Source: Escherichia phage WPEC5. Taken from it: a DNA stretch of 64,000 nucleotides. The stretch lies in the sequence record PV654397.1; one strand, written 5' to 3'. The notes under the pieces are model-generated. The model did not search any database. It worked only from the letters and a program-made list of their open reading frames with translations, and was not told the origin of the DNA. Of the stretch, positions 6,801 to 7,727 are shown piece after piece (positions within the stretch are counted from its first letter, which is position 1; every line of letters begins with the position of its first letter). The translations under genes and the position numbers were made by a program.

Positions 6801-7727
6801 TTAGAGTGAGCTTAACAGCAAATCCGCTCTGTTTGTAACTTGGCGATACCACAAGGAATTCATGATTTCTTTCTTGAATTTCTTAGGGTTATCCATTTTA
6901 ACACTTTTCCAAAGTTTGTCAAATGTTGCCAACTTATCAACGCCCATTGTGTATGACATTTCAAACAGGATACGCTGCTGTTCTTTTGTCAGATTAACTG
7001 CATCTTTCTTCTGCATCAATAGTGTAAAGTCCTCGTAAGTCCTTTTCATATCTTGCATTAAAAGTTTGTTGGCCTGTGCTTTGGTAATCCCGTTTCTGTA
7101 CTTCATTGCATCAGAATCTTTCTTACCCAAATAATGCCCATAACCAATTGTATAATTACCTTTCATGTCCTTATAGGGATGAAATTTAGAATTGTGGAAA
7201 GGAACTCCAACTTTCCCACCAAGTAAACGTCGTTTGTTCTTGGACTGAAATTCAATAGAACCTTCAGCTTCTTTGATGTGATTGACAATTTCTGGATCTT
7301 TATAATCAAACAGTACAGTCACATCTGGTAACAATACGTTCTTCAAATCCTCTTTTGTTGGGATAAAGATACCCTGAGAAGTATGAAGAGTTGCATTTAA
7401 GTTGATGTTCTTCAACAAAATGACATAATCTTCAATCTGTACATTTTTAGGTTTAAATTTCTGTGCAATAGAATAATAACTATCTCCAGGTTGAACCGTA
7501 TAATGTTTCTCGCTGCTTGGAACTGCTTTTGGTACTGATACCTGTGGTAGTTCCTGCTTTTGAATTTGAGTAAACTGTGGTTTTAAATTATGCACCTGAC
7601 TTTCGTCTAATGATGGTACATGATCACTTTGAGAAAAACCATAAAATCCAATCGCAGCGAATAGGGCTGATGAAACTAATACGCCTACGGCAATTTTAGT
7701 TTTCAGTGCTTTTTTCGCTTTTTTCAA
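6801..7727 (-). CDS. lysozyme (T4-lysozyme-like) with LysM domain and N-terminal signal anchor
   Basis: NYTIGYGH and WYRQVTNRA match T4 lysozyme; LysM HYTVQPGDSYYSIAQKF; hydrophobic N-terminus; TTG start after AAGGAGG. Confidence 0.75.
   Translation of the reverse strand: MKKAKKALKTKIAVGVLVSSALFAAIGFYGFSQSDHVPSLDESQVHNLKPQFTQIQKQELPQVSVPKAVPSSEKHYTVQPGDSYYSIAQKFKPKNVQIEDYVILLKNINLNATLHTSQGIFIPTKEDLKNVLLPDVTVLFDYKDPEIVNHIKEAEGSIEFQSKNKRRLLGGKVGVPFHNSKFHPYKDMKGNYTIGYGHYLGKKDSDAMKYRNGITKAQANKLLMQDMKRTYEDFTLLMQKKDAVNLTKEQQRILFEMSYTMGVDKLATFDKLWKSVKMDNPKKFKKEIMNSLWYRQVTNRADLLLSSL

Follow-up and report, generated by a model that had tools for sequence, protein, structure and literature searches.

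What part does a lysozyme gene play in a jumbo phage when it is surrounded by early/middle-type genes (tRNA, nucleotide metabolism, HPF)? The gene examined here occupies positions 6801 to 7727 of the window, i.e. the whole 64,000-nt stretch of DNA that was analysed. A previous sequence-only reading had described it as a lysozyme with a LysM motif and an N-terminal signal peptide or SAR domain, and had suggested either a holin-independent SAR endolysin or a superinfection-related muramidase. The DNA is that of a Rak2-like jumbo coliphage of the genus Asteriusvirus, in which 121Q gp532, phAPEC6 gp293 (gp293c), CBB_187 and fEgEco12 g275 are the orthologs of the gene. Its product is matched over the full length by phrog_15410 (E = 7e-162) and has 66 full-length or nearly full-length homologs, with identities down to 43%; the present copy is a variant 98-99% identical to deposited sequences.

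The open reading frame at 6801-7727 is as previously described and lies on the minus strand, which had not been specified:

6801..7727, minus strand: coding sequence of the 308-aa TM-LysM-GH24 lysozyme (308 codons; a 927-nt coding sequence is likewise annotated in relatives)
7727-7725, minus strand: start codon TTG
6803-6801, minus strand: stop codon TAA
7732..7738, minus strand: Shine-Dalgarno AAGGAGG, 4-nt spacer to the TTG start

The proposed start, a TTG behind AAGGAGG, agrees with the 4-nt spacer, with the conservation of the Shine-Dalgarno sequence (AAGGAGG is invariant in 4 Asteriusvirus genomes, and GGAG(G) precedes the start in all other genera compared) and with the N-termini of 24 homologs, which align at 7727. 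A longer open reading frame starting from a TTG at 7754 was rejected as unlikely: it is unconserved and has no Shine-Dalgarno sequence, the Shine-Dalgarno sequence of the 7727 start would itself be translated, and the homologous N-termini do not align there. The N-terminal extension is translated and is conserved as protein.

The protein is basic, 308 residues long and free of cysteine. From its N-terminus, it consists of an anchor, a disordered tether, a LysM domain and a lysozyme domain of the T4-type GH24 kind; the order anchor, LysM, lysozyme claimed before is right, the two domains being supported by Pfam, by PDB matches and by the AlphaFold model. The enzymatic domain comprises the following elements:

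6804..7298, minus strand: GH24 (T4-type) lysozyme domain, residues 144-308
7263-7265, 7167-7169 and 7149-7151, minus strand: catalytic codons of E155, D187 and T193, respectively
7179..7256, minus strand: lineage-specific beta insertion, residues 158-183, between the catalytic Glu and Asp

PF00959 recognizes the domain with 44.3 bits (cut-off 22.3; E = 2.6e-11), and T4 lysozyme PDB chains match with E about 1e-7. Alignment to these chains places TIGYGH and WYRQVTNRA on T4 TIGIGH and WYNQTPNRA, which bears out the signature segments (TIGYGH, WY.Q..NRA) picked out in the sequence-only reading. None of E155, G156, D187 and T193 varies among 24 relatives. In the HMMER alignment D187 and T193 fall on T4 D20 and T26, and E155 falls on T4 E11 when aligned via two paralogs and T4 lysozyme; the direct sequence alignment of E155 with E11 was abandoned in favor of the paralog route, since the hhalign comparison with T4 lysozyme, despite a probability of 97.7%, breaks at the insertion. 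The catalytic Glu and Asp of T4 E thus both have a counterpart. In the AlphaFold model, pLDDT is around 90 or higher over most of residues 144-308, and helix 145-155 ends in Glu-Gly, as does helix A of T4 lysozyme. Foldseek aligned the model with T4 lysozyme entries over 173-178 columns (target-normalised TM-score 0.65-0.70, rmsd about 3.4 Å). The domain is therefore of the T4-type GH24 fold with an intact Glu/Asp/Thr triad, as judged from sequence and model, and is predicted to be an active muramidase.

The insertion accounts for an E-to-D spacing of 32 residues, as compared to 9 in T4 lysozyme, i.e. for 23 extra residues, and includes a conserved KRRLLGGK motif. Rak2-like phages encode three related GH24 lysozymes (3 places per record in every listed genome); tblastn found no paralog within the 64-kb window, the two paralogs being located elsewhere in the genome. 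Both paralogs of 121Q, gp586 and gp587, have a 13-residue version of the insertion in common, while the extra 10 residues (a basic loop with KRRLLGGK) are confined to the LysM-bearing forms. That the insertion is common to all three paralogs is new here. 121Q gp586 is a soluble 162-aa protein whose start codon is closely preceded by a perfect TATAAATA, a T4-type late promoter motif, and whose gene sits inside the baseplate operon, between gp25-like and gp5-like genes. With EDTA added, its ortholog LysUE1 shows muralytic activity in vitro and lyses cells (PMC12805682), which indicates that the insertion-bearing GH24 subtype is active.

The middle of the protein, in which a LysM motif had been noticed, contains a true LysM domain, as judged from sequence and model:

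7359..7511, minus strand: predicted LysM peptidoglycan-binding domain, residues 73-123 (Y76, G81, N109 and P123 invariant)

The Pfam match is marginal (PF01476, 21.5 bits for a cut-off of 20.9, with only profile positions 1-17 of 43 covered). The motif was borne out by a family profile of residues 70-128, which hits LysM domains of known structure (E = 3.6e-10 to 1e-7) and matches two of these, 4uz2 and 5k2l, across the full domain, and by the AlphaFold model, which shows a beta-alpha-alpha-beta arrangement over residues 75-121 with pLDDT about 90 (strand 75-77, helices 84-91 and 98-108, strand 119-121). The GD(S/T) turn and the Asn of LysM are kept: G81 and N109 are invariant and D82 is nearly so. 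Murein binding is predicted on these grounds.

The N-terminal region comprises the following parts:

7695..7727, minus strand: Lys-rich N-tail MKKAKKALKTK, residues 1-11, predicted cytoplasmic, net charge +6
7635..7694, minus strand: hydrophobic segment IAVGVLVSSALFAAIGFYGF, residues 12-31, predicted uncleaved N-in/C-out signal anchor, possibly SAR-like
7512..7634, minus strand: Ser/Gln/Pro-rich tether, residues 32-72, predicted disordered

The Lys-rich and then hydrophobic N-terminus noted earlier is indeed present: the +6 tail is followed by the 20-residue IAVGVLVSSALFAAIGFYGF (mean Kyte-Doolittle 2.0), the sole such segment in the protein, within which an AAxGFxGF motif is conserved. The N-flank is positive (+1 to +6) and the C-flank neutral or acidic in 24/24 family members, in keeping with the positive-inside rule. 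No small-x-small signal-peptidase motif is conserved after the hydrophobic segment among the relatives. Together with conservation at the protein level, these features lead us to predict that the segment stays in place as a signal anchor and is not cleaved off as a signal peptide. Residues 1-72 have pLDDT below 50 in the AlphaFold model, and the tether is the least conserved region (mean pairwise identity 0.42, as compared to 53% for the hydrophobic segment).

Whether the anchor resembles a SAR domain was assessed from its composition and from approximate insertion energies. Gly, Ala, Ser and Thr make up 47% of the anchor, compared to 63% in R21 and 53% in P1 Lyz, and its insertion energy is +1.2, compared to +0.8 and +0.5 for these two SAR controls. 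The stable-anchor controls scored -2.5 to -2.8, but one of them (the i-spanin anchor) gave +5, a non-inserting score, and the family itself spans -2.5 to +5, with clearly hydrophobic anchors in some members. The hydrophobicity of the anchor is therefore borderline on a measure that did not cleanly separate the controls, and its likeness to the R21 and P1 Lyz SAR domains, both of them verified, in composition and approximate insertion energy is suggestive, not discriminating.

The protein family has been known since 2017 from sequence analysis: Buttimer et al. described it in silico as a protein of three domains and suggested that it is an endolysin of the SAR type (PMC5259590). In our literature search, experimental work on this family was found only in that paper, according to which induction of CBB_187 inhibited the growth of E. 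coli (data not shown) (PMC5259590). CBB_187 is missing from the list of CBB structural proteins (PMC5259590) and phAPEC6 gp293 went undetected by virion mass spectrometry (PMC7247149), so that, by orthology to these two proteins, the lysozyme is a non-virion protein.

The features downstream and the candidate lysis partners are as follows:

6452..6784, minus strand: HPF/RaiA ribosome hibernation factor gene (PF02482, E = 1.6e-10)
6412..6443, minus strand: intrinsic-terminator-like hairpin AAAGGGACAG...CTGTCCCTTT, then TCTT
16193..16878, minus strand: spanin pair, 8.5 kb upstream of the lysozyme gene and on the same strand
16504-16878, minus strand: i-spanin (phrog_1152, Rz-like spanin)
16193-16507, minus strand: o-spanin (lipobox LISGC)

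The HPF gene, which scores 33.6 bits with TIGR00741 (below the cut-off), starts 16 nt past the lysozyme stop codon. The two genes are probably co-transcribed, and the terminator-like hairpin would close this unit; the lysozyme-HPF synteny is kept in GAP32 and SE_PL. Genes of the 121Q gp511/gp512 type have been assigned as spanins (PMC6139136), and tblastn with these two proteins matched the window spanins with 78% and 70% identity. The pair is presumed to be the lysis partner of the lysozyme. In a distant relative (L025), the TM-LysM-GH24 homolog is directly preceded by a homologous spanin pair, with about 240 bp between them, and in L026 and L027, which are shorter relatives, the same GH24 subtype is fused directly to an N-terminus of the SAR-like or signal type. 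No holin family was recognised among the neighbours of the gene; the matches of the small membrane ORFs 9916-10140 and 8520-8666 are limited to PHROGs without a known function. In fEgEco12, a weak T-like holin candidate, annotated 'holin' and without a Pfam holin match, is located about 128 kb away. This weakly supported candidate would suit the soluble paralog enzyme.

Upstream of the gene, we found a promoter candidate and a conserved leader:

7844..7871, minus strand: sigma-70-like promoter candidate, TTGATA, 16 nt, TGcTATACT (extended -10)
7774..7813, minus strand: conserved 5' leader, an invariant motif followed by a hairpin
7813-7800, minus strand: invariant leader motif TGTAGAAAGTCCAA
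7798-7794 and 7782-7778, minus strand: leader hairpin, GAGGC and GCCTC around an 11-nt loop

The promoter candidate is found in 4 Asteriusvirus genomes, with an invariant -10 and a variable -35. Matches to the sigma-70 consensus in this AT-rich region are not above chance (15 for 18.5 expected), so that position and conservation are the sole grounds for the call. The leader occurs once per genome in 47/48 records (the remaining record has 2 copies) and is conserved in different genera, its stem showing compensatory changes. It had no match in Rfam, and its single-sequence fold is no stabler than those of shuffled sequences (z = -0.41). The leader carries the GTAGAAAGTCCAA motif. The idea of a repeated promoter-like element was dropped, as the motif is not repeated in the window, and an IMG/VR scan with a loose leader pattern was discarded, as it returned mostly chance matches. 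The conserved structured leader upstream of the gene is new here; it and the TTG start probably keep the amount of enzyme low.

There is no T4-type late motif near the gene, and the coding strand of the 64-kb window holds only two ATAAATA, both distant. TATAAATA is depleted in the window (1 for 9.3 expected), but it is also depleted in the structural region of 121Q (0 for 6.3), so that its depletion is uninformative on the gene and only its local presence or absence was used. The only published transcriptome of the clade is that of PA5oct, which does not have this gene.

Taken together, we consider it probable, if only just, that the gene product is a Sec-exported, membrane-tethered endolysin muramidase that works with the spanin pair. 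During infection, the protein would insert in the inner membrane, with its LysM-GH24 part in the periplasm and restrained by the anchor. After depolarisation or perforation of the membrane by a holin, the anchor, which is rich in Gly/Ala/Ser and appears weakly hydrophobic, might be released in the manner of a SAR domain; alternatively, the long tether might let the enzyme reach the wall after holin action. LysM would then dock onto murein, GH24 would cleave MurNAc-GlcNAc bonds and, in a last step, the spanins would break the outer membrane. The holin-independent SAR endolysin put forward in the sequence-only reading is plausible as far as the predicted uncleaved anchor is concerned, whereas the distance between the anchor and the catalytic domain and the lack of cysteine do not fit the characterised SAR enzymes, and the hydrophobicity is borderline. 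The early/middle-type gene setting, the sigma-70-like promoter and the lack of a late motif nearby speak against an endolysin role, and the soluble paralog gp586 could be the main endolysin instead. Note that the promoter type does not exclude a role in lysis, since the T4 endolysin gene e is also transcribed early.

A possible, if tentative, alternative is that the protein is an accessory, stably anchored muramidase made in the early/middle phase from a host-type promoter. It would loosen or remodel murein locally (as an example, during the filamentation and bulging of cells holding about 100 giant virions) or act as a back-up lysin, while a gp586-type enzyme, a T-like holin and the spanins would lyse the cell. 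The sigma-70-like promoter and the absence of a T4-type late motif upstream, as opposed to the TATAAATA directly upstream of gp586, are consistent with such a division of labor, as is the apparent co-transcription with HPF within a block of metabolic genes. No listed Rak2-like genome lacks any of the three GH24 paralogs, which suggests distinct roles, and the gp586 ortholog is muralytic, although gp586, being located in the baseplate operon, could also be a component of the tail or of its assembly that mass spectrometry missed. The 40-residue tether and LysM could let a permanently anchored enzyme touch the wall, and some family members have clearly hydrophobic anchors; however, a constitutively active tethered muramidase should kill early, and we know of no inhibitor or control of such an enzyme. 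Asteriusvirus-infected cells do filament and bulge before bursting (PMC11895373), in agreement with an accessory role, and bulging before the burst fits gradual wall degradation. By contrast, the adjacency of the L025 homolog to spanins argues for the membrane-tethered endolysin.

A further proposal, which we regard as unlikely, is that the gene embodies a new phage function: a permanently tethered, LysM-guided, pre-late muramidase, co-transcribed with HPF and throttled in dose by the TTG start and by the structured leader RNA or a leaky terminator, would remodel the sacculus, with filamentation and bulging as the result, and so create space for giant virions, and the late soluble paralog would lyse the cell. 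That the protein is instead an endolysin secreted by way of a cleavable Sec signal peptide, soluble in the periplasm and inactive under an energised membrane like Lys44 of oenophage fOg44, seems improbable to us. The S-Q-S then D that follows the anchor does satisfy the -3/-1 rule for signal peptidase I, but relatives have YQN, ISH, NKN and similar there, the 20-residue hydrophobic stretch exceeds a typical signal-peptide core, and its conservation above that of the tether would be unusual for a discarded peptide. Hardly any credence can be given to a virion-associated or entry-related lysin, or to the superinfection-related muramidase suggested earlier, for which no support was found: some database records do name orthologs 'tail lysozyme' and the GH24 domain is closest to the tail hub paralog and to phiKMV-type internal virion protein domains, but the protein was neither detected in phAPEC6 virions nor listed among those of CBB, it has no structural (hub or needle) domain (the lysozyme-bearing hub is a separate gene, 121Q gp587), a membrane-insertion signal would be senseless in a particle component, and exclusion by means of a muramidase is without precedent to our knowledge.

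The overall finding is ordinary and will not surprise specialists, but it clarifies the architecture encoded by one jumbo-phage gene and points to a likely role for it, in a phage whose genes are mostly of unknown function. The layout of anchor, tether, LysM and lysozyme fits neither of the established SAR regulatory mechanisms, and there may be a third way to restrain an exported endolysin, or a non-lytic role. The LysM-GH24 ectodomain is also a candidate wall-binding enzybiotic module against Gram-negative bacteria.

Like the SAR endolysins P1 Lyz and R21, the protein combines a GH24 domain with a predicted uncleaved, N-in/C-out anchor that is rich in Gly/Ala/Ser and seems, on the approximate scale, to be of marginal insertion energy, and its export is predicted to be holin-independent. 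Unlike in these enzymes, 112 residues including LysM separate the anchor from the catalytic domain, so that an R21-type refolding into the active site is impossible here; so is the disulfide switch of P1 Lyz, since there is no cysteine (nor is there any in 19/23 relatives). Again unlike in SAR systems, no pinholin was recognised next to the gene. With T4 lysozyme (gene e), the protein shares the fold (Foldseek TM-score about 0.68 when normalised to T4 lysozyme), the catalytic Glu/Asp/Thr and the TIG.GH and WY.Q..NRA segments; it differs by the 23-residue insertion, the N-terminal export signal and the LysM module, T4 lysozyme being soluble and strictly holin-dependent. The paralogs gp586 and gp587 (C-terminal domain of the tail hub) belong to this GH24 subtype too and carry the insertion behind the catalytic Glu, but lack the anchor, LysM and 10 of the insertion residues and are encoded in the baseplate operon. 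phiKZ gp144 and EL gp188 have no membrane anchor. They resemble the present protein in joining a catalytic domain to a separate peptidoglycan-binding module, a modular design unusual for phages of Gram-negative hosts, and differ in having another binding domain and a transglycosylase domain (PMC5259590). The closest counterparts are the Rak2-like orthologs: CBB_187, 121Q gp532, GAP32 gp180 and RaK2 gp506 have the same length and the same TM-LysM-lysozyme order (PMC5259590), amino-acid identity is about 90% to the PBECO4/slurp01 group (including 121Q) and about 50% to GAP32, and the synteny with HPF, CCA-adding enzyme, Nudix and glutaredoxin genes is the same. In essence, the protein does not differ from the predicted endolysins of Rak2-like phages.

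The lysozyme gene lies on the minus strand, where a frame of 308 codons runs from TTG (7727-7725) to TAA (6803-6801), with the Shine-Dalgarno sequence AAGGAGG (7738-7732) 4 bases 5' of the TTG; frame, start codon and Shine-Dalgarno sequence are all present as the sequence-only reading had them. A 927-nt CDS of identical extent is annotated in three deposited relatives, the N-termini of 24 homologs line up at the TTG at 7727, the start region shows no variation across four Asteriusvirus genomes, and most relatives likewise start with TTG or GTG. The longer frame from TTG 7754 given by a mechanical ORF list was rejected: it is without a ribosome-binding site, and the Shine-Dalgarno sequence itself would be translated. 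Over the 3 kb around the gene, identity is 99.5% with Escherichia phage EC.P1 and ~88% with 121Q and PBECO4, all of the genus Asteriusvirus (Rak2-like jumbo myoviruses, ~350 kb). Orthologs include 121Q gp532 (RefSeq name 'LysM peptidoglycan-binding domain-containing protein'), fEgEco12 g275 and phAPEC6 gp293c, and the protein matches phrog_15410 end to end (E = 7e-162).

The gene belongs to a family that is already known and annotated. Buttimer et al. 2017 (PMC5259590) described CBB_187, GAP32 gp180, 121Q gp532 and RaK2 gp506 as having a transmembrane domain at the N-terminus, a weak LysM-like domain in the middle and a lysozyme at the C-terminus, and likened them to signal-arrest-release (SAR) endolysins; the sequence-only reading therefore repeats a published in-silico description. 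Our literature search for an experimental study of this TM-LysM-lysozyme family found none. The present additions are modest: a GH24 insertion common to the paralogs, with a LysM-linked extension; promoter motifs that differ between paralogs; and a conserved structured leader 5' of the gene.

The C-terminal domain matches PF00959 (E = 2.6e-11, Pfam) and T4 lysozyme chains in the PDB (E ~1e-7), and a HMMER alignment places D187 and T193 on T4 D20 and T26. Pairwise and profile alignments missed the catalytic Glu because 23 extra residues separate it from the Asp; an alignment by way of the two paralogs found in this group of phages put E155 (IKEAEGS) on T4 E11 (RIDEGL). None of E155, G156, D187 and T193 varies among 24 relatives (identity down to 45%). 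In the AlphaFold model, whose pLDDT is ~90 or higher over most of residues 73-308, helix 145-155 ends in Glu-Gly, as does helix A of T4 lysozyme, and the GH24 insertion folds as extra beta strands; Foldseek against the whole T4 lysozyme chain gave target-normalised TM-scores of 0.65-0.70. Every Rak2-like genome listed carries three GH24 copies. In 121Q the other two, both encoded within the baseplate operon, are gp586 (soluble, 162 aa) and the domain at the C-terminus of the tail hub protein gp587. The insertion after the catalytic Glu is common to all three, and the LysM-bearing form has 10 further insertion residues with a conserved KRRLLGGK.

The Pfam match to LysM is marginal (21.5 bits vs a cut-off of 20.9, 17 of 43 positions), being truncated because the inter-helix loop carries an insertion. 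A profile of residues 70-128 matches solved LysM domains, some at full length, and the AlphaFold model contains a canonical beta-alpha-alpha-beta unit at residues 75-121. The only hydrophobic stretch of the protein (residues 12-31, 20 residues) has a net charge of +6 before it and -3 after it and contains the conserved motif AAxGFxGF; from these sequence features we take it to be a type II signal anchor that stays uncleaved. Conservation is lowest at residues 32-72, which are disordered in the AlphaFold model. Together, the Pfam and PDB matches, the family profile, the AlphaFold model and the charge asymmetry bear out the proposed order of anchor, LysM and T4-type lysozyme.

We consider it somewhat probable that the protein is an endolysin that is exported and tethered to the inner membrane. 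It would be held there until membrane depolarisation freed or enabled it; LysM would then attach to murein, GH24 would cut it, and the spanins would act last. 121Q gp511 and gp512 are spanins according to Kongari et al. 2018 (PMC6139136), and their orthologs are found in the window together with the following features.

Features around the lysozyme gene
16193-16878, minus strand: separated two-component spanin pair (gp511/gp512 orthologs), same strand as the lysozyme gene, 8.5 kb upstream
7871-7844, minus strand: sigma-70-like promoter candidate with extended -10, in the 140-bp intergenic gap before the lysozyme gene
7774-7813, minus strand: leader with invariant TGTAGAAAGTCCAA (GTAGAAAGTCCAA), then a hairpin GAGGC-loop-GCCTC
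6452-6784, minus strand: HPF/RaiA ribosome hibernation factor gene (PF02482, E = 1.6e-10)
6443-6412, minus strand: good predicted terminator hairpin after HPF

The i-spanin (124 aa) and o-spanin (104 aa, lipobox LISGC) genes overlap by 4 nt. The HPF/RaiA gene begins 16 nt past the lysozyme stop, a linkage kept in GAP32 and SE_PL, and the promoter candidate resembles other predicted intergenic promoters of the same gene block. In 121Q, T4-type late motifs, (T)ATAAATA, are found a short way before structural genes, and gp586 has one directly before it; the coding strand of the 64-kb window contains only two ATAAATA copies, both away from the lysozyme and the spanins. There is a strong deficit of TATAAATA (1 vs 9.3 expected in the window, 0 vs 6.3 in a 40-kb 121Q structural region), and the rare (N)ATAAATA copies lie shortly upstream of structural genes, such as that at 26751, 40 nt before an 898-aa gene (24015-26711). 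This placement fits late promoters of the T4 type, which the gp55-like sigma factor of the phage (121Q gp591) would read. Note that the promoter, late-motif and terminator signals around the lysozyme gene are consensus matches, not proof of use.

Other genes of the region were recorded as well. The gene upstream of the lysozyme (7895-8305, minus) encodes a 136-aa phrog_12204 protein with a sub-threshold 2H phosphoesterase match (PF22547, 23.8 bits vs 27), implausibly labelled 'viral L protein' in fEgEco12. At 9916-10140 (minus), on the strand of the lysozyme gene, 2.2 kb upstream of it and just before the thymidine kinase gene, a 74-aa phrog_22328 protein with two strongly hydrophobic segments resembles a class II holin or pinholin in size and topology, with no supporting homology found. 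Paralogous ORFs of ~40 aa at 4318-4440 and 5450-5575 (minus) share an acidic/aromatic C-terminal motif (...PEYQPKGFWERLRDWLMGE, ...PEYKPNGFLERLFDWLMGE), and three tandem ORFs at 18998-20598 (minus; 169, 173 and 188 aa), apparently paralogs, have a common motif of the form KSPxLK...D..R.

The leader follows the promoter candidate and precedes the ribosome-binding site. It is 91-100% identical over 61 nt among Asteriusvirus genomes vs ~88% for the flanking genes; 47 of 48 records have a single copy per genome, and most leave it unannotated. Records L009-L023 have the leader as well, upstream of the match. Its motif and hairpin also precede the lysozyme gene in other Rak2-like genera, where the proteins are only ~50% identical and the motif comes after another hairpin, frequently with a UUCG loop, that overlaps the upstream gene's stop codon. 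In an alignment of 14 distinct sequences, pairing holds in 85.7% of cells, vs 36-58% in slid controls, with compensatory changes in 6 of the 12 pairs; single-sequence folding showed no unusual stability, and an Rfam search gave no match. We hypothesize that the leader may work by attenuation or processing to restrict how much of a dangerous enzyme is made.

The main rival to a tethered endolysin assigns lysis to the soluble paralog, driven by a predicted late promoter and perhaps acting with a weak T-like holin candidate of fEgEco12, the tethered enzyme being accessory or wall-remodelling; we regard this as possible but unlikely. LysUE1, the gp586 ortholog, is muralytic in vitro (PMC12805682). 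The holin candidate, g406 (record L168, 1353-2015, annotated 'holin'), has 220 aa, with a single membrane segment at the N-terminus and a large domain at the C-terminus, a layout similar to that of T4 holin T; Pfam gives it no holin match, and its published HHpred match is weak (E = 2.6). Asteriusvirus-infected cells reportedly filament and bulge (PMC11895373), which is compatible with either role for the tethered enzyme.

Relatives outside the Rak2-like group bear on its use in lysis. The 30-kb viral contig L025 codes for a homolog at 30% identity with anchor, LysM and PF00959, ~240 bp directly downstream of an overlapping i-spanin/o-spanin pair homologous to that of the window (E = 6e-10 and 4e-11), a classic lysis-cassette layout. 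At the position equivalent to the leader (2120-2170), TGTAGAAAAA is followed by a strong hairpin and T-run, a predicted intrinsic terminator that directly precedes the lysozyme gene. This homolog (2213-3391), which is preceded by that terminator and a AATAAATA motif, has ~95 extra residues, predicted cytoplasmic, before the membrane segment. The L026 and L027 proteins (220-232 aa) have the same GH24 subtype without LysM, fused directly to a weakly hydrophobic, Ala/Gly/Ser-rich N-terminus, and resemble ordinary endolysins of the SAR or secreted kind. These layouts suggest that this GH24 subtype has repeatedly been used as an exported lysis enzyme.

Cleavage of a signal peptide is a much weaker alternative, and we think it very improbable: the S-Q-S triplet that follows the anchor here would suit a signal peptidase, but relatives do not conserve it, whereas the charge asymmetry is the same in 24/24 of them. 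A virion or superinfection role is scarcely credible, as the phAPEC6 ortholog gp293 was not found in virions (PMC7247149) and CBB_187 is absent from the CBB virion protein list (PMC5259590); nothing found here supports the superinfection-related muramidase also envisaged in the sequence-only reading. The tail hub protein is a virion component (PMC5259590, PMC7247149).

We compared the anchor with those of two structurally characterised SAR enzymes, whose sequences were checked against the PDB (R21, 3hde; P1 Lyz, 1xjt), and with stable anchors.

Gly/Ala/Ser/Thr content and approximate insertion energy of anchors
This protein: 47%; about +1.2
R21 (SAR): 63%; +0.8
P1 Lyz (SAR): 53%; +0.5
Lambda Rz and two small window membrane proteins (stable anchors): 26-32%; -2.5 to -2.8

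The lysozyme anchor is therefore close to the SAR controls. However, insertion energy ranges from -2.5 to +5 across the family and is also +5 for the i-spanin anchor, so the likeness is no more than suggestive. Of the SAR endolysin interpretation the architecture stands; the mechanism would be atypical and is unproven. In contrast to known SAR enzymes, a stretch of 112 residues that includes the LysM separates the anchor from the catalytic domain, and the family is essentially cysteine-free, so that neither the disulfide switch of P1 Lyz nor the refolding of R21 can apply.
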